NCBI GenBank assembly: GCA_902529805.1
Contig: CABZXU010000007.1
Span: forward strand, 877 to 64,876
DNA: 64,000 nt
From: an uncultured Marinoscillum sp.
GTDB taxonomy: Bacteria; Bacteroidota; Bacteroidia; Cytophagales; MED-G16
Direction: 5' to 3'
Shown: one piece after another, positions 20,776-61,995 of the stretch
How positions within the stretch are numbered: the first letter of the stretch is position 1
How the letters are laid out: each line of letters opens with the position of its first letter
Position numbers and translations under genes: made by a program
Notes under the pieces: generated by a model
Told to the model about the DNA's origin: nothing
Database searches by the model: none
Seen by the model: the letters and a program-made list of their open reading frames with translations, nothing else

Positions 20776-23427
20776 ATGAGGAATCTTATTTTACTTTTTT
20801 TTCTATTTTTATTTTGTACCCAAAATATTATTGCAAATCATATTGTTGGGGGTGAAATTGAAATGAAATTTATTGGTGATTCATTAGGTGATTATAAATA
20901 TCGAATCTCTTTAATTCAATATTTTGATTGTTATCAAGATGGGGAGGTTCCGCTGCCAAATCCAGGGCCTGATAATAGTGTCACGTATTCAATCTTTAAA
21001 AGATCAGATGGATCACTTGTAGAAAATAGAACAATGTTTATTACATCTCAGACATTTGTTCCATATACTAATCCAGCATGCGCAGTTGGTTTTATTTGTA
21101 CTATTCGTGTAGTTTACTCACACGAAATATATTTAAATCCTAATAAATTTGATGATCCTGAAGGTTATGATATATCATGGGCAAGATGTTGTAGAAATAA
21201 GAATACTAAAAATTTAGTTAATCCAAGATATACAGGTATGGTTTATTCATTACATTTTCCACCTATAAGAAAAGATGGTAAACATTTTATTAATTCTTCT
21301 CCTAGACTTTTTCCTCCATTGAGTGATTATGCTTGTGTAAATCAATTATTTTATACTGATTTTGCTGGAAGTGATGATGATGGAGATTCAATTGTTTATT
21401 CACTTTCTCATCCATTAGATGATAACCAACCTAATCAACTACCAGGACTTGTAGCTTTACCAGGAAATTATCCTCCTCCATATCAATTGGTTGAGTTTGG
21501 ACCAGACTATTCAGTTGATAATATGATACCTGGTAATCCAAAACTTAATATTTCAAATGATGGTTTTATTACAGTAAAACCTTCTTCACTTGGATTGTTC
21601 GTTTTTTCAATAAAATATGAAGAATTTAGAAATGGAACAAAATTGGGAGAGGGAAGAAGAGATTTTCAAATGTTAGTTGTAGATGGATGCGATCCTCCTA
21701 TTCCTCCAGATGCAGTAGTAAAACTACCTAGTGAATCAGATTTTTATAATGAAGTAGATACAATAAGATTTACTGTTTCTGAATCAAAATGTTTTGACTT
21801 TTATGTTACTGACCAAAATGAAGGAACTAATATAAAACTTGAAGCACAAGGAGTCAATTTTAAATTAGCGGATGATATTTTTAGTTTTACAGAAGGACAA
21901 ATAAATGAAGCTGGAGATACTTTAAAAGTAGAAGTTTGCGTTTCTGATTGTCCATATGTTGAGAATAATGAACCTTATCTTATTGATTTAATTGCTTCTG
22001 ATGATGCATGTCCACTACCTCAAAAAGATACGGTAAGATTAATTATTGAAATAAAATCACCAGAAAATCAAAACCCCTATTTTGTTAATAAAAAGGATAC
22101 TACAAAAGTTAAAATTTTATGGAATTCAAATTATTCAGAAATAATTCAAGGAATAGATCCAGATAATGATAGTTTGGTCCTAAAGTATTTATATGATGGA
22201 TACATTCCTGAAGAAAACGGTATATTTATTACCAATAATTTTAATATACCAGGTAGTTTAGAAAGTACATTAACTTTTGATGCAAATTGTAAAAAATATA
22301 ATTATAATGAAAAAAATAAGTTTTTATTTGGACTTGTTTTAGATGATTTAGATACATGTAATTTATTAAATACTGACACTATTTTTTATGAATTTGAGGT
22401 GGAATTACCGGAAAATACAAATCCAGATCTTACATCAGATTTAAGTATTACAAATCCTTTACCTGATAGGCCTAATTACTCAGAAATCGTAAGAAATGTT
22501 GATCTTTCTGGTGTTTTTTCTATGCAATTGTTTTCAGATGATGTAGATAATGATACCCTTGTTATTTCTGCTCAAGGTGTTGATTTTGATTACCAAAATA
22601 GAGGGGCTGCCTTTTCAGCAAATAATTTTGAAAGAGGACATGTTGAAGGATCTTTTAATTGGGATATGGAATGTATTAATTTTAGATATGATGGAACAAA
22701 CACATATAAAATTAATTTTATTACTGAAGATATTGATCAATGTCAAGAGGTAAACTCAGACACTATTCAATTGACATTAAATATAGACTTACCAGAAAAT
22801 AAAGCACCTGAAATAACTAATTTAGATACTTATAAATTAATTGTTAATAATGAATTTAAAATTGATATTAATGCAATTGAACCGGACAATCAATTGGTAT
22901 TTTTGGACTTAATTTCAACTAGTCCAAAAGGAAATTTTTCTTTTTTATCTAGCTCAGGCATTGGCTCAACTTCTAGTACATTATCATGGACACCTACATG
23001 TGAATTTTTGGATGATAATTTTTCTGAAAAAAGTTATAATTTAACTTTCATGGCTACAGATAACAGTTGCCCTATTCCAGAAAAGAAACTTAAAACAATC
23101 AAATTTTTAGTATCTATTCCTGATTCTATCGAATATAACTTTTCTCCTCCCAATGCTTTTAGCCCAAATGGTGATGGAAAAAATGATACTTATAAGTTAT
23201 CAGGATTATCTAACGAACAACAAAATTTACCTAAAGATCAATGTGATGATAAATTTGATTATATAGCATTTTATGATAGAAATGGATTAGAAGTATTTAG
23301 ATCTTATGATAGAAATTTTGAATGGAATGGTAGTGGTTTAGAATCTGGAACCTATTATTATTATATAAAATATAGTAAAACTAATAGTAGGCATAATTAT
23401 AAAGGAAATGTATCTTTAATATATTAA
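20776..23427 (+). CDS. large exported multi-domain adhesin-like protein with a T9SS type-B (gliding-motility-associated) C-terminal domain
   Basis: Signal peptide. N-terminal HIVGGEIEM...YKYRISL module. Repeated domain boundaries PENQNPYF, PENTNPDL and PENKAPEI. C-terminal FSPNGDGKNDTY ... YDRNGLEVF ... WNG ... GTYYYYI is characteristic of the CHU_C / type-B sorting domain. Confidence 0.8.
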   Translation: MRNLILLFFLFLFCTQNIIANHIVGGEIEMKFIGDSLGDYKYRISLIQYFDCYQDGEVPLPNPGPDNSVTYSIFKRSDGSLVENRTMFITSQTFVPYTNPACAVGFICTIRVVYSHEIYLNPNKFDDPEGYDISWARCCRNKNTKNLVNPRYTGMVYSLHFPPIRKDGKHFINSSPRLFPPLSDYACVNQLFYTDFAGSDDDGDSIVYSLSHPLDDNQPNQLPGLVALPGNYPPPYQLVEFGPDYSVDNMIPGNPKLNISNDGFITVKPSSLGLFVFSIKYEEFRNGTKLGEGRRDFQMLVVDGCDPPIPPDAVVKLPSESDFYNEVDTIRFTVSESKCFDFYVTDQNEGTNIKLEAQGVNFKLADDIFSFTEGQINEAGDTLKVEVCVSDCPYVENNEPYLIDLIASDDACPLPQKDTVRLIIEIKSPENQNPYFVNKKDTTKVKILWNSNYSEIIQGIDPDNDSLVLKYLYDGYIPEENGIFITNNFNIPGSLESTLTFDANCKKYNYNEKNKFLFGLVLDDLDTCNLLNTDTIFYEFEVELPENTNPDLTSDLSITNPLPDRPNYSEIVRNVDLSGVFSMQLFSDDVDNDTLVISAQGVDFDYQNRGAAFSANNFERGHVEGSFNWDMECINFRYDGTNTYKINFITEDIDQCQEVNSDTIQLTLNIDLPENKAPEITNLDTYKLIVNNEFKIDINAIEPDNQLVFLDLISTSPKGNFSFLSSSGIGSTSSTLSWTPTCEFLDDNFSEKSYNLTFMATDNSCPIPEKKLKTIKFLVSIPDSIEYNFSPPNAFSPNGDGKNDTYKLSGLSNEQQNLPKDQCDDKFDYIAFYDRNGLEVFRSYDRNFEWNGSGLESGTYYYYIKYSKTNSRHNYKGNVSLIY

Positions 23428-30304: not shown

Positions 30305-31975
30305 ATGTGTGGAATATTTGCTTTATTTGATATAAATGATTCTCCTAATGATCTTATGAGAAAAAGATCTTTAGAAATGATCAAGTTAGTAAGACATAGA
30401 GGTCCTGATTGGTCTGGCATTTTCACTTCTCCTAATGCTATCTTAGCTCATGAGAGGTTATGTATTGTAGATATAAATTCAGGAAAACAACCTATAAAAT
30501 CTGAAAGTGAGGATATAATACTTTCAGTAAATGGTGAAATTTATAATCATAAAAACATTAGAAAAAATAAAAATATAAAATACAATTATCTTACTAATTC
30601 TGATTGTGAAGTTATTCTGTCACTATACCAAAATAAAGGTGTTAATTTTTTAAATGACTTGAATGGTATTTTTGCATTTGCTCTTTATGATGCGAAAAAA
30701 AATGAATACTTAATTGCTAGAGATCCTATTGGAGTCATTCCATTATATATTGGTTGGGATGAATATGACAATTTAAATGTTGCATCAGAGATGAAATCTC
30801 TTGTTAAATACTGTAAAAAAATAGAAGAGTTTCCTCCCGGACATTATTATTCAAGTAGAGATAAAAAATATACCAAATACTATAAAAAAGATTGGATGAG
30901 CTATAGTAATATTTCAGAAAATAAAACCTCTATCAGTTCTTTAAAACAAGCTCTTGAACAATCTGTAAAAAATCAGTTGATGTCAGATGTTCCTTTTGGC
31001 GTCCTTCTTTCAGGGGGATTAGACTCATCAATTATTGCTGCACTTGTGAAAAAGTTTTCTAAGAAAAGGATAGAATCTGATGATAAGAAAGATGCTTGGT
31101 GGCCACAAATACATTCTTTTGCAATTGGACTTGAAAACTCTCCTGACCTTGAAGCTTCCAGAGAGGCTGCAAATTATATTGGAACTGTTCACCATGAAAA
31201 AACCTTTACAATTCAAGAAGGTTTCGATGCAATAAGGGATGTGATTTATTTTCTTGAAACCTATGATGTTACAACAGTCAGAGCTTCGACTCCAATGTAT
31301 TTATTAGCAAGAATTATAAAATCTATGGGAATAAAAATGGTATTGTCAGGTGAAGGTGCTGATGAAATTTTTGGAGGATATCTTTATTTTCATAAGGCAC
31401 CAAATGCTAAAGAATTTCATGAAGAAACAGTAAGAAAATTGAATAAGTTACATTTATATGATTGTTTAAGGGCTAATAAATCAATGGCTGCGTGGGGTGT
31501 AGAGTGTAGAGTCCCATTTTTAGATAAAGATTTTCTAGATGTATCTATGGCTATAAACCCAAAAGACAAGATGATTGGATCAGAAAAAATGGAAAAATGG
31601 ATTTTAAGAAAAGCATTTGAAAATGAATTACCAAAAAATATTTTATGGAGACAAAAAGAACAGTTTTCTGATGGAGTAGGATATGGATGGATTGATTTTT
31701 TGAAAGAATATGTTGAATCAAATATATCTGATAAAGAATTTGATATAAGAAATAAAAAGTTTCCTATTAATACACCAAAGACAAAAGAAGAATATTATTA
31801 TAGAAATATCTTTGAGGAGTTTTATAAATCTAAATCTGCTATTAAAACTGTTCCTTCATCAAAATCTGTTGCTTGTAGTACAGAAGAAGCATTATTGTGG
31901 GATAAAGACTTTCAAAATCTTAATGATCCGTCTGGAAGAATTATATCTAATGTTCATAAAAAATCATATTTTTGA
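30305..31975 (+). CDS. asnB: asparagine synthase (glutamine-hydrolysing)
   Basis: MCGIF N-terminal nucleophile, and SGGLDSS pyrophosphatase loop (LLSGGLDSSIIAA); 556 aa. Confidence 0.92.
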   Translation: MCGIFALFDINDSPNDLMRKRSLEMIKLVRHRGPDWSGIFTSPNAILAHERLCIVDINSGKQPIKSESEDIILSVNGEIYNHKNIRKNKNIKYNYLTNSDCEVILSLYQNKGVNFLNDLNGIFAFALYDAKKNEYLIARDPIGVIPLYIGWDEYDNLNVASEMKSLVKYCKKIEEFPPGHYYSSRDKKYTKYYKKDWMSYSNISENKTSISSLKQALEQSVKNQLMSDVPFGVLLSGGLDSSIIAALVKKFSKKRIESDDKKDAWWPQIHSFAIGLENSPDLEASREAANYIGTVHHEKTFTIQEGFDAIRDVIYFLETYDVTTVRASTPMYLLARIIKSMGIKMVLSGEGADEIFGGYLYFHKAPNAKEFHEETVRKLNKLHLYDCLRANKSMAAWGVECRVPFLDKDFLDVSMAINPKDKMIGSEKMEKWILRKAFENELPKNILWRQKEQFSDGVGYGWIDFLKEYVESNISDKEFDIRNKKFPINTPKTKEEYYYRNIFEEFYKSKSAIKTVPSSKSVACSTEEALLWDKDFQNLNDPSGRIISNVHKKSYF

Positions 31976-32057
31976 TCAGTGAAAAATTATTTTGCTTTCT
32001 TATTATTATTTTTTTCTTTTAATTTATTTTCTCAAATATCATTACCAACTTTTCATG
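31939..32057 (+). repeat. direct repeat copy A: last ~37 nt of asnB, its stop, a GTG start and the signal-peptide/leader coding region
   Basis: Aligns by eye at about 85% identity with 32988-33106. Example: cataaaaaatcatatttttgatcagtgaaa versus cgataaaaaattatatttttgatatgtgaaa. The block ttttcttttaatttattttctcaaata is identical, followed by one mismatch (t vs g) and the identical block cattaccaactttt. Confidence 0.7.
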
Positions 32058-32971
32058 CTACCCAAAATCTAAAGTCAGTAGTTAATAATTTTCAAGTAGG
32101 TGATCCTTTAATTGTTGCTGGTGGTGGTGGTGGAGTTATTTATCAAGTTAACCCACATTCAGGAATGCATGCATCTATATCAGAAACTGGAAATAGTGGA
32201 AAAAATGGAACTGCTGGCGGTTCGAACGGCAATGGAGGAAGTTCTACTCGAGGAGGAGGGGGAGGAGGATTTCTGACTGATGGTGGACAGGATTCTAGAA
32301 GACCCGGAACTAAAGGAATAAGTTTTACTAATGGTGGTTTAGGAGGTAATGCGACTGATACAAATACAGGTGATGGAGGATTTGGAGGTGGAGGAGCTTC
32401 AATTCGAGTAAATAATAATATTGGTGATCAAGGTGCTGGAGGAGGAGGAGGTTACTCTGGAGGAGGAGGAGCGGGAGCAAATAATCAAAGTCACGGTGGT
32501 GGAGGTGGATCTTATAATAATGGAGCTAATCAAGTAAATGTGACTCATCCTAATGGAAATGTTGGACATGGAAAAGTTATTATAACTCAAGGTGGTTCGA
32601 CATGGACATTTACTACTTGTGGTGTGTCTGGAAGAACTGGACCCACTCAAAATCAATGTAACTCTTCTTATTCTGGTACTAATTTAACAGGAAATGTTAC
32701 TTTAGTTGATGGAATTCAACATTGGACTATTCCAGCTACTGCAACTTATACTATAAAAGCTTACGGAGCCTCTGGTGGCGATAATGGAAAAGACCCTAAT
32801 TGGAGTAGTTGTCCATATTTTTGTAGAGATGGGGGTCATGGTGCAATTATTCAAGGAGACTTTACTTTAGCTTCTGGTACAGTACTAAAAATACTTGTTG
32901 GTCATCACCCTGAAAATGTTAACTGGCTTAATGGAGGAGGAGGAGGAACCTTTGTAGTGTTATCAAATTAG
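31979..32971 (+). CDS. exported glycine-rich protein, ALK/LTK-type TNF-like/glycine-rich module in circularly permuted order
   Basis: GTG start 3 nt after the asnB stop, then a signal peptide. Residues ~41-203 look like the C-terminal half of the module (LIVAGGGGG ... GGFGGGG ... GGGGGYSGGG ... GHGKVIIT). Residues ~208-330 look like the N-terminal half (WTFTTCGVSGRTGPTQNQCNSSYSGTNL ... GIQHWTIPATATYTIKAYGASGG ... GTVLKILVG ... GGGGGTFVV). Confidence 0.75.
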   Translation: MKNYFAFLLLFFSFNLFSQISLPTFHATQNLKSVVNNFQVGDPLIVAGGGGGVIYQVNPHSGMHASISETGNSGKNGTAGGSNGNGGSSTRGGGGGGFLTDGGQDSRRPGTKGISFTNGGLGGNATDTNTGDGGFGGGGASIRVNNNIGDQGAGGGGGYSGGGGAGANNQSHGGGGGSYNNGANQVNVTHPNGNVGHGKVIITQGGSTWTFTTCGVSGRTGPTQNQCNSSYSGTNLTGNVTLVDGIQHWTIPATATYTIKAYGASGGDNGKDPNWSSCPYFCRDGGHGAIIQGDFTLASGTVLKILVGHHPENVNWLNGGGGGTFVVLSN

Positions 32972-32987
32972 TTATCTGTTATTTTCA

Positions 32988-33106
32988 AATTATATCAAAT
33001 TTCGATAAAAAATTATATTTTTGATATGTGAAACTTTATTTAATTCACTTATTATTATTATTTTCTTTTAATTTATTTTCTCAAATAGCATTACCAACTT
33101 TTTATG
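32988..33106 (+). repeat. direct repeat copy B: non-coding fossil of the asnB 3' end, then a GTG start and leader of the second glycine-rich gene
   Basis: See copy A. It retains an ...aaaaaattatatttttga... remnant of the asnB terminal codons and stop, just upstream of GTG 33028. Confidence 0.7.
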
Positions 33107-34011
33107 GAGCTTTAAGAGTATCAAATCAAAACCAGTTTCAAGGAACTTCTGCTACTTTTACAAATTGCGGTAAAACAGGTAAATTTGGTCCTTCTCAAGG
33201 AGATTGTAATTCTGAATATAGTGGAACAAACTTAGATGGGTTTGTTACCGTTTCTGGTGGTATTCAAGAATGGGAAGTTCCTGTAACCGGAACATACATC
33301 ATTACGGCATATGGAGCTCAAGGGGGTGGTCTTAGTGGGGGTAGTGATAGTGGAGGCAAAGGTGCTAAAATATCTGGAGAATTTAATTTAACTGCAGGAA
33401 CAGTATTAAAAATACTTGTAGGTCAGAAAGGTCTCACTGTTAATAAAGAAGCTTCTGGTGGTGGGGGAACTTTTGTAACTAAAAGTCCACATAATAATAA
33501 TGCTTCTATTCTTGTTGTAGCAGGTGGTGGTGGTGGTTCCTGGAATAACCATACAACTTCTCATGGTCAAGCAGGAGAATCAGGAAATGCTGGGTGTTGT
33601 GGTACTTCAAAAGGTCAAGGAGGATCAAATGGTAATGGAGGAGGTGGACAAGCTACATGTGCTTCAGATGGGGGAGCCGGTTTTTTTACTAATAATAATG
33701 TACTTACACATTGTGGTAATGGTGCTGAAAGAGAAGCTTTTGCATATGTTAATGGTGGAAGAGGTGGTCAAAATTATTGGTGTAGTGGCGCTGTTGGTGG
33801 TTTTGGTGGAGGAGGAGGAACAGCAAGATGTGCAGGTAATACTTATACTGGAGGAGGAGGAGGAGGATATTCAGGAGGAGGAATGGATTATCCTTATCAA
33901 AATGGTACACCAGGAGGAGCTGGAGGAGCTGGATCTAAAAATAATGGTAGCAATGCTACAAATGTCTCTGGGAATAATCCAGGCCATGGAAAAGTAGAAA
34001 TATCATGGTAA
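33028..34011 (+). CDS. exported glycine-rich protein, canonical-order ALK/LTK-type TNF-like + glycine-rich (polyglycine-II) module
   Basis: GTG start and a signal peptide. The ordered motifs are TFTNCGKTGKFGPSQGDCNSEYSGTNL, GIQEWEVPVTGTYIITAYGAQGG, GTVLKILVGQKG, SGGGGTFV, LVVAGGGGGS, GGFGGGGG, GGGGGGYSGGG and GHGKVEISW. Confidence 0.8.
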   Translation: MKLYLIHLLLLFSFNLFSQIALPTFYGALRVSNQNQFQGTSATFTNCGKTGKFGPSQGDCNSEYSGTNLDGFVTVSGGIQEWEVPVTGTYIITAYGAQGGGLSGGSDSGGKGAKISGEFNLTAGTVLKILVGQKGLTVNKEASGGGGTFVTKSPHNNNASILVVAGGGGGSWNNHTTSHGQAGESGNAGCCGTSKGQGGSNGNGGGGQATCASDGGAGFFTNNNVLTHCGNGAEREAFAYVNGGRGGQNYWCSGAVGGFGGGGGTARCAGNTYTGGGGGGYSGGGMDYPYQNGTPGGAGGAGSKNNGSNATNVSGNNPGHGKVEISW

Positions 34012-60804: not shown

Positions 60805-61995
60805 CTACAGACCATTATTTTGTGTTACCCCTATACAATAATATCCATCATTTAGGTTAACACTTGAAAACACAACATTATCGCTATTGATTATGTTGTT
60901 AGCAGTTCTCACGATAGAAAAATCTCCTGAAGTATTAGATCTATATAATAATTTGTAATGTGTTACTGGGTTTACTGTTAATAAATTATTTCCTGTAACA
61001 TCTCTAATATCAAATATCATTGTTGTTGAATTGACCGCACCAGTTTCATCGGTATTCCAAATTCTTTTTGATCGTCTAACTACTCCAGCAGGAAGATCAG
61101 AAGTAGAAGAGCTAGATAGATTGTTATTTCCAAAAACAACAAAGTTTTCTTCTGCCAAAATACTTGATACACTCATAGTCAATCCATTTGAAGGTTGAGA
61201 AGCATTTGTTCCTGTCATCCTCCACAACCCTTCAATATCTGTTTCATAATCATCATTTAAGAAACCTATTGGAACGTATGAATCTACCCAATCATTGCTG
61301 TTCATTCCACCTGTCATCGATCCATTTTTTGAATTAGTACTATTATCTGTTAGTGTAGTTCCTGAACCATTACTCATTTTATAATATGCTTTGAGATTAC
61401 TTTCATTACCTTCTAATTCTTTGAACATATTCGATTTTATTTCTGTTGCAGTTCTTGCATCATTCCAAATTCTCAGTTCATCAATTTTCCCATCTATAGT
61501 AAGGCTTCCATTAGCTTTACCAATATACTTCCAATATAATTTTGCATTTGAAAGATTTTTTGTTCCTTTAGATGCTCCATTTACAAACAATTCAACATTG
61601 TTATTTTTACCAACCCATACAACATGCTCCCACTTACCAATTGATGTAATATAATTCCATTTCCAATCGGTATTTCCAAATTTTGTGATGCCAAGTTTAT
61701 GAGTATTATTCCACTGCTCTAGTTTTAGAGCCCAACATCCTGAACCACATCTCCAAAGAAGATTAGCTCCATTATTATTTGATGCTCTTTCATACCAAAC
61801 TTCTACAGTCCATGGAGGGTTCAAATCTGAACCATTGATTTGAATATTATCTCCATTTCCATCAAATTCTAGAGCATAATTAACAAATGGAATTGGCGGA
61901 TCGGGTTTTTGTATTCCATGAAATGTTGGAAGAGAAATTTGAGATAACAGATTATTGAATGTTAATAAAAATAAAAATATAATATAATATTTCAT
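60805..61995 (-). CDS. exported LamG/concanavalin-A-like (Laminin_G_3) domain protein sharing the QISLPTFHG leader
   Basis: Signal peptide. ALEFDGNGDNIQI ... GKIDELRIWNDARTATEI is typical of LamG-type lectin folds. The C-terminal ~170 aa are unassigned. Confidence 0.7.
   Translation of the reverse strand: MKYYIIFLFLLTFNNLLSQISLPTFHGIQKPDPPIPFVNYALEFDGNGDNIQINGSDLNPPWTVEVWYERASNNNGANLLWRCGSGCWALKLEQWNNTHKLGITKFGNTDWKWNYITSIGKWEHVVWVGKNNNVELFVNGASKGTKNLSNAKLYWKYIGKANGSLTIDGKIDELRIWNDARTATEIKSNMFKELEGNESNLKAYYKMSNGSGTTLTDNSTNSKNGSMTGGMNSNDWVDSYVPIGFLNDDYETDIEGLWRMTGTNASQPSNGLTMSVSSILAEENFVVFGNNNLSSSSTSDLPAGVVRRSKRIWNTDETGAVNSTTMIFDIRDVTGNNLLTVNPVTHYKLLYRSNTSGDFSIVRTANNIINSDNVVFSSVNLNDGYYCIGVTQNNGL

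Follow-up and report, generated by a model that had tools for sequence, protein, structure and literature searches.

The 64,000-nucleotide stretch of DNA analysed here (the window) belongs to an uncultured bacterium whose close relatives carry the NCBI label Marinoscillum sp. (metagenome-assembled or single-amplified genome, MAG or SAG) in the order Cytophagales; a first-pass annotation of the window had assigned it to the Flavobacteriia. That annotation drew attention to three exported proteins, one with a LamG domain and two rich in glycine, in which the signal peptide is followed by the same short peptide, Q-I-[SA]-L-P-T-F-[HY]-[GA], and all three N-termini are present in the window sequence exactly as quoted there. 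The peptide, hereafter the tag, occupies 11 residues. We report that it is a real, selected, lineage-restricted and undescribed N-terminal tag on exported binding modules. The tagged genes of the window and their parts are the following.

60805..61995, minus strand: exported LamG protein of 396 amino acids (aa), consisting of signal peptide, tag, Pro-rich linker, LamG domain at residues 45-187 and an uncharacterised C-terminal region
61942..61995, minus strand: signal peptide of the LamG protein, MKYYIIFLFLLTFNNLLS, residues 1-18, with the predicted cut before Gln19
61909..61941, minus strand: tag of the LamG protein, QISLPTFHGIQ, mature residues +1 to +11, from the translation
61885..61908, minus strand: Pro-rich linker KPDPPIPF, joining the tag to the first LamG strand, from the translation and the orthologue alignment
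31979..32971, plus strand: glycine-rich protein 1 (GR1), 330 aa, with an ALK/LTK-type glycine-rich domain (open reading frame, ORF, and Pfam)
31979..32032, plus strand: signal peptide of GR1
32033..32065, plus strand: tag of GR1, QISLPTFHATQ, from the translation
33028..34011, plus strand: glycine-rich protein 2 (GR2), 327 aa, with an ALK/LTK-type glycine-rich domain (ORF and Pfam)
33028..33081, plus strand: signal peptide of GR2
33082..33114, plus strand: tag of GR2, QIALPTFYGAL, from the translation

The LamG assignment comes from a match of the ORF at 60805-61995 to Laminin_G_3 (PF13385, concanavalin-A-like) over residues 45-187, with E 9.5e-17 and 62 bits against a cut-off of 27.6. The tag itself matched no curated family, as had been supposed: no Pfam or NCBIfam model covers residues 1-30 of the six proteins scanned. 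We found no description of the tag in the literature, where LPTF as a motif led only to the lipopolysaccharide transporter gene lptF.

We scanned the assembly of the window's genome (G000; 1.65 Mb in 55 contigs, 28% G+C, 89% complete) for the motif in all six frames, using ORFs of at least 80 aa. The motif proved real and the set of carriers larger than the three proteins reported: seven ORFs carry it genome-wide. Besides the three in the window, these are four ORFs on other contigs, listed here.

G000 contig C1, 108159-108890: 243 aa, without a Pfam domain (the C1-type protein)
G000 contig C19, 10092-10976: 294 aa, LamG
G000 contig C31, 5995-6738: 247 aa, LamG
G000 contig C12, 1653-2681: 342 aa, glycine-rich, with a tag shorter by one residue, QILPTYQGFF

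The string QIxLPTF was observed six times against 0.014 expected, and the core LP[TS][FY][HQY][GA] seven times against 0.23 expected; all seven core matches sit immediately behind a signal peptide. As a control, the DNA pattern was reversed, and it then matched nowhere in the four genomes of the genus. One concern raised by the first-pass annotation was that the motif might be equally frequent behind signal peptides in general. This concern did not hold up, as nothing similar was found in the approximately 160 other proteins of the genome with a signal peptide followed by Gln, in which every residue at +2 to +12 stays at or below about 15% and the region is polar. The tag marks about 4% of the exported proteins that start with Gln. 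The tagged proteins have signal peptides of a kind ordinary in this genome, and FNLFSQ, for example, also ends untagged ones.

To place the tag relative to the cleavage site, we used a matrix of positions -7 to -1, with position +1 left out, derived from the 162 signal peptides in this genome that have no tag behind them. The best site lay before the Gln in five of the six tagged proteins scored, including the LamG protein of the window (LLS|QIS), and in the sixth a site within the signal peptide (10.8) scored slightly above the Gln site (10.5). A cut behind the motif, which would have made the tag part of the signal peptide, scored 0.7-3.5, compared with 4.9-13.9 before the Gln, and would place a Phe at -3; this possibility, also raised beforehand, was rejected. 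The tag stands at +1 of the predicted mature protein in all 42 distinct sequences collected, and the six tagged proteins scored have signal peptides of 15-19 residues, the length usual for other proteins of the genome. The tagged proteins have Gln at the predicted +1 behind an ordinary signal peptide, the arrangement of signal peptidase I substrates under the Bacteroidetes Q-rule, by which this Gln is cyclised to pyroglutamate (PMC5837995, PMC10653852). A gene for glutaminyl cyclase is present (PF05096 match at G000 C11:46025-46717, E 1.5e-87), which makes pyroglutamate at the start of the tag plausible.

Other known export signals were looked for in the same proteins. The earlier statement that the tagged proteins have neither a C-terminal domain of the type IX secretion system (T9SS) nor a lipobox holds for the cargo proteins of the window and of the whole genome. 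The T9SS type A C-terminal domain (TIGR04183, Por_Secre_tail) has 12 matches in the genome and the type B domain (TIGR04131, Bac_Flav_CTERM) has nine, and neither matches any of the seven tagged ORFs. One of the type B matches lies on an untagged exported protein of 883 aa in the window (20776-23427, plus strand), and T9SS cargo and tagged cargo are separate sets within the same window. All 42 tagged N-termini have Gln at +1, uncharged residues at +2 to +5 and no Cys at +1, so they contain neither a lipobox nor the lipoprotein export signal (LES) discussed below. The group of orthologues of the protein at G000 C19:10092-10976 (with L012 and L018) has a Cys at -1 (SFC|Q, SLC|Q), not at +1, in a context that is no lipobox, and the orthologue in genome G001 has Ala at that position (MFA|Q). 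The tag is not type IV pilin-like, since the hydrophobic segment precedes the motif, there is no prepilin G|F-T-L-I-E or G-F-T-L-x-E sequence and no NCBIfam model matched. The O-glycosylation motif D-[ST]-[ALIVMT], an amino-terminal copper- and nickel-binding (ATCUN) metal site and a TonB box were discarded by inspection as misfits to the sequence.

We then compared the tag with its flanks. Among six paralogues, identity is 72% over the 11 residues of the tag, 32% over the last 15 residues of the signal peptide and 8% over the 11 residues that follow. The synonymous codon differences noted in the first-pass annotation are real and affect Ile (ATT/ATA/ATC), Ser (TCT/TCA), Leu (CTT/TTA/CTA), Pro (CCA/CCT) and Thr (ACA/ACT/ACC), and the DNA upstream of the tagged genes is unrelated except in the tandem pair GR1/GR2. 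These codon differences and the unrelated upstream DNA rule out a recent DNA copy or gene conversion, again with the exception of GR1/GR2. That pair shares GTG starts and about 20 alike upstream bases (...aaaaaatcatatttttgatcaGTG and ...aaaaaattatatttttgatatGTG; window 31939-32057 and 32988-33106), a likeness that would fit a tandem duplication that copied the end of asnB. One could argue from such a duplicate, with its near-identical leader and similar upstream bases, and from the tandem multiplication of tagged genes in general, that the peptide is a functionless relic of common descent or of gene conversion at the 5' end. We give this explanation hardly any probability: the selection pattern in effect refutes it, since the tag is so much better conserved than its flanks while its codons differ, and it is kept across species and genera on unrelated folds.

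Conservation among orthologues points the same way. In ten orthologues of the window's LamG protein (61-90% overall identity), residues 19-35, which comprise the tag and the Pro-rich linker, are invariant except for position 21 (+3), and the signal peptide varies among the same ten sequences. For the C1-type protein, a search among 5.8 billion proteins showed the tag kept in 12 of 12 homologues, down to 59% identity. Absence of the motif from orthologues, which the annotation had named as evidence against it, was thus not observed down to 61% identity for the LamG protein or down to 59% for the C1-type protein. From 31 distinct sequences in the main register we derived a consensus with Q (31/31), I (23/31), S/A/I/V and L (31/31) at +1 to +4; P (31/31), T (27/31) or S (3/31), F (31/31) and Q/H/Y at +5 to +8; and G (20/31) or A (11/31), I/T/V/A, and Q (14/31) or H (13/31) at +9 to +11. 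The paralogue identity pattern, the synonymous codons and the orthologue conservation support the proposal that the peptide is a discrete element selected at the protein level, and show, as far as sequence comparison can, that the tag is under selection of its own.

An element that adjoins the cleavage site without exception could act at the export stage only, tuning Sec targeting, cleavage by signal peptidase I or the glutaminyl cyclase for fast-folding beta-sandwich cargo. Its hydrophobic residues at +2, +4 and +7, compared with the polar +2 to +5 of the roughly 160 other exported proteins, could prolong contact with the translocon or the peptidase. However, these other proteins, beta-rich ones included, do without the tag, and its conservation extends to +11, and through the linker in one orthologue group, which is beyond the usual reach of cleavage-site effects. 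Its restriction to binding modules also points to the function of the product and not to export mechanics. We therefore regard an effect limited to export as distinctly unlikely.

The cargo behind the tag is varied. In the window's genome, its relatives and metagenome contigs, the carriers include several LamG subfamilies and several ALK/LTK-type glycine-rich subfamilies, a PA14/GLEYA protein, a SPRY protein, the C1-type protein and at least two more without a Pfam match. Each cargo is a single small module of about 190-420 aa of a ligand-binding kind, and together they represent at least five unrelated Pfam-level folds; scans of the cargo proteins, some of which have no Pfam match at all, recognised no enzyme domain. 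Behind the tag each paralogue has its own short polar or Pro-rich stretch, followed by the domain.

We asked whether the tag belongs to the fold of its cargo. An AlphaFold2 model of the 247-aa LamG protein (contig C31), built from 26 aligned sequences, shows a jelly roll that begins near residue 38 and is predicted with confidence (mean pLDDT, predicted local distance difference test, 82) and residues 1-30 with pLDDT below 50. A Foldseek search with this model matched ordinary concanavalin-A-like lectin and carbohydrate-binding domains. Distant homologues of the same protein (27-37% identity) have no signal peptide and no tag and align from the first LamG strand to the end. Because these untagged homologues have a complete LamG domain, we conclude that the tag is an add-on. 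Complete untagged homologues and the unpacked tag in the model rule out, for LamG, that the tag is the first strand of the cargo fold. The LamG cargo, the only one compared in this way, is not short of a strand as a donor-strand subunit would be, and the strand-complementation role within the cargo fold that the first-pass annotation had suggested is unlikely.

Two side observations concern these LamG proteins. The homologues of the C31 protein nearest outside the clade (P0042-P0051), from marine metagenomes, start with MIISGTRLVGGKY... followed by LDAGNPASYPGSGTTW, and may be viral structural proteins. In the 396-aa LamG protein of the window, the C-terminal 150 residues (approximately residues 240-396, window 60805-61280) are conserved among orthologues and end in NLNDGYYCIGVTQNNGL; neither T9SS C-terminal domain model matches this region. 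A protein database lists PF26628 for this protein and its orthologues without stating which part is covered. The AlphaFold2 alignment of the 396-aa protein was too shallow (mean pLDDT 50) and the model was not used for the C-terminal region; in this low-confidence model the tag and linker also have pLDDT below 50.

A free N-terminal peptide might serve as a handle for self-association, by which tagged proteins exchange strands with each other or with cargo domains to form mixed lectin oligomers or fibres, comparable to TasA or chaperone-usher pilins. The alternating hydrophobic pattern I-x-L-P-T-F-x-G-I would suit a short strand, the tag is free in the AlphaFold model, and on related contigs as many as four tagged genes stand in tandem. 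Against this stand the unrelated cargo folds, which leave no common acceptor groove, the completeness of the LamG fold without the tag, and the Pro at +5, which would break a regular strand; self-association is in our view quite improbable.

The distribution of the tag is narrow. A strict DNA pattern occurs three to six times per genome in the four genomes of the genus, and none of the family's other 21 genomes has it behind a signal peptide. With a profile of the signal-peptide end and tag, 301 genomes of the order in 22 families gave strong matches only in the own family and noise outside it, and 281 other genomes had no tag. Per genome, the profile matched five or six times in the genus; the sister genus has zero to three matches with the degenerate sequences Q-[ST]-I-L-P-S-F-x-[GA]-V-[HQ]-x-K-K, Q-I-L-P-S-[NH]-H-A-V-H-H or Q-V-M-P-T-S-F-G-I-H-S-K-K. 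The pattern [LIS][FL][SGC]QI[SAG]LPTF, searched in one genome for each of 185,579 species, was confirmed only in this genus, with one other match out of frame. A profile search of 1.84 billion protein representatives returned 21 matches, of which three were repeat artefacts and 18 came from the same A+T-rich marine clade, and marine metagenome contigs (31-38% G+C) contributed 14 further tagged loci. These searches show that the tag is restricted to one family of small-genome marine Cytophagales. An origin of the tag from phages was rejected, as IMG/VR contained no tagged ORF.

We searched the surroundings of the tagged genes for a partner. The genes are scattered over the genome and several abut or overlap the preceding housekeeping gene: one lies 3 bases behind asnB, and the starts of two others overlap an OsmC-like and a GroES-like gene, as we presume these to be from the appearance of their sequences. 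This arrangement lends no support to the small regulon of tagged proteins that the first-pass annotation had envisaged. No linked partner gene is common to the seven loci, the orthologous loci in three genera and the 14 metagenome contigs; only other tagged genes recur. Elsewhere in the genome there is no CsgG (PF03783) match, and hence no sign of a curli-type system, and no match to sortase or exosortase (PF04203, PF09721); two rhomboid genes are present, as in many bacteria. Signal peptidase I is encoded by a single ORF of about 350 aa in the family relatives (G001, G002, G004-G023) and was missed in three incomplete ones; where the gene was found, there was no dedicated second signal peptidase of the SipW type. 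In the 89% complete assembly of G000 no signal peptidase I gene was found, and because the relatives have one, the gene probably lies in the unassembled part. The incompleteness of the assembly makes all absences from this genome soft.

Some neighbouring loci deserve mention in their own right. On the related marine contig L068 (1219-5157; the same as L069) four tagged genes, one LamG and three glycine-rich, lie in tandem between the GroES-like gene and the gene that follows the lone tagged gene on contig C31 of G000, and the site looks like an insertion hot spot. Tagged pairs, of the types glycine-rich plus LamG and PA14 plus LamG, occur on L073 (1998-3744) and L070 (1858-3325). Three larger proteins encoded outside the window (QSPYAFNYQGILRNP, QTPNGFNYQAIVRDG and QVPYGFNYQTIVRNT) have a second conserved sequence at the mature N-terminus behind the signal peptide, Q-x-P-x-x-F-N-Y-Q-x-I-[VL]-R-[ND]. 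This could be a further N-terminal motif or the beginning of a domain common to the three, and its carriers are the following.

G000 contig C1, 215355 onward: 605 aa
G000 contig C1, 217260 onward: 162 aa, reaching the contig end
G000 contig C14, 41340 onward: 1645 aa

The lack of a recognised partner bears directly on the idea that a machine or an enzyme reads the tag as a sorting signal, in place of passive docking. The reader would provide an outer-membrane route for cargo that is neither lipoprotein nor T9SS substrate, or would cut within the tag or modify the N-terminus, for example by lipidation. The layout of basic n-region, hydrophobic helix and motif at the outer face of the inner membrane mirrors C-terminal tripartite sorting signals, and the strict +1 position fits recognition coupled to signal-peptide cleavage. 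Binding modules are useful only at the surface, yet these have neither a T9SS C-terminal domain nor a lipobox. There are precedents, too, in Aat, where a signal acts at the N-terminus exposed by signal peptidase I (PMC7943197), and in Bacteroidota lipoproteins, where a short export motif follows the cleavage site (PMC5080379). However, the genome has no sortase or exosortase match and only the two usual rhomboids, CsgG is not matched, the relatives have a single signal peptidase I gene, no neighbour gene is conserved, and a pyroglutamate N-terminus would block N-acylation. We consider a sorting signal of this kind unlikely.

The explanation we favour, tentatively and with somewhat less than an even chance of being right, is that the tag serves this family as an N-terminal address or docking label for which the tagged proteins have one envelope receptor in common. 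The proteins would be exported by Sec and cleaved by signal peptidase I before the Gln, which would then probably be cyclised to pyroglutamate following the Q-rule. This would expose the 11-residue peptide (pGlu)-I-x-L-P-T-F-[HQY]-[GA]-[IVTA]-[QH], free on a short polar or Pro-rich linker ahead of a single ligand-binding beta-sandwich module. One common receptor of the cell envelope would bind the peptide, probably as an extra short strand in a groove, and interchangeable lectin-like heads would thereby be held at, or routed to, one place. Behind this proposal stand the demonstrated position of the tag, its selection, its nature as an add-on, the class of its cargo, its restriction to a single lineage and the absence of known sorting features; the existence of the receptor is what we infer.

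Several points weigh against the docking proposal. No receptor candidate was found, and the neighbours of the tagged genes are housekeeping genes, different at every locus. The tag is degenerate in the sister genus, where Phe at +7 is replaced by Asn or His in some orthologues, which is odd for a strictly conserved receptor. Eleven residues are short for a specific docking interaction. The disordered N-terminus of the one structural model would also be compatible with an intermolecular strand exchange among tagged proteins. Cleavage before the Gln and formation of pyroglutamate are predictions of a home-made matrix and of the Q-rule, and whether the tagged proteins end up beyond the periplasm is likewise a matter of deduction.

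Taken one step further, the tag could be the address label of an undescribed Bacteroidota pathway, dependent on Sec and independent of T9SS and lipoprotein export, by which small soluble binding modules are held at the surface by their N-terminus. We think this broader scenario unlikely; if true, the tag would be to the N-terminus what the T9SS domain is to the C-terminus, and a receptor or transporter specific to the family would go with it.

The hosts are abundant, streamlined, uncultured ocean bacteria with genomes of about 1.6 Mb and few dispensable genes, and the findings suggest that the tag is a compact way of mounting interchangeable binding heads on the cell. Should there be a receptor, the tag offers a direct handle for finding it, and it is also a simple search key for the adhesin and lectin set of these bacteria in ocean metagenomes. 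To our knowledge, short shared tags are how bacteria address exported proteins, and with each newly recognised one a sorting enzyme, transporter or scaffold has come to light. The value of the tag lies in what it may add to Bacteroidota protein sorting and to the surface biology of streamlined ocean bacteria, within the limits set by its narrow distribution in one family, its uncultured hosts and a function that is deduced.

Finally, we compared the tag with known systems. The tags of Bacteroidota known to us are the T9SS C-terminal domain and the acidic lipoprotein motif, and we know of none described at the N-terminus of signal peptidase I substrates. Like the T9SS C-terminal domains, the tag is an element shared by unrelated, often lectin- or adhesin-like Bacteroidota cargo in a genome that has a T9SS; unlike these folded domains of 70-100 aa at the C-terminus, it is an 11-residue N-terminal peptide. 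In chaperone-usher pilins with their N-terminal extensions and in TasA/TapA fibres, whose subunits have SipW-type signal peptides, a mature N-terminal peptide adds a beta-strand to another subunit. Such donor-strand subunits share one fold with an open groove and rely on a dedicated usher, chaperone or SipW peptidase, and in Bacillus the peptide is common to TasA and TapA. The tagged cargo differs in having unrelated and complete folds, and only one signal peptidase I is encoded in the relatives. Donor strands, dockerins and the N22 curli secretion peptide of CsgA are the more distant analogies. A dockerin is a folded domain of about 70 aa that binds Ca, and N22 needs CsgG; the tag resembles dockerin-cohesin pairs and N22 in being one short shared module that could plug different cargo into one scaffold or channel.

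The remaining systems act, as the tag does, at the mature N-terminus. The tag starts with the Gln of the Q-rule, but this rule covers only +1 and applies to most exported proteins, so that the part specific to the tag is +2 to +11. Aat/Cex cargo has a glycine at the N-terminus left by signal peptidase I, and this residue is acylated before the protein is secreted (Icke et al. 2021, PMC7943197). Sorting information made by signal peptidase I at the very N-terminus is common to both, but Aat/Cex depends on Gly at +1 and on an operon that encodes both an Lnt-like acyltransferase and a TolC-like channel, and nothing of this sort is linked to the tagged genes. The LES of Bacteroidota is a short acidic motif, K-(D/E)2 or S-D-D-D, which stands behind the lipidated Cys and sends lipoproteins to the surface (Lauber et al. 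2016, PMC5080379). It shares with the tag the phylum, the position right behind the cleavage site, the linker and globular domain that follow, and the occurrence on a subset of exported proteins; the tag differs in following a signal peptidase I and not a signal peptidase II site, in starting with Gln, in its uncharged hydrophobic-aromatic character and in its 11 residues. Because it fails the defining feature of each family compared, the tag is a member of none of them, and the LES is its nearest known system by logic and by phylum.

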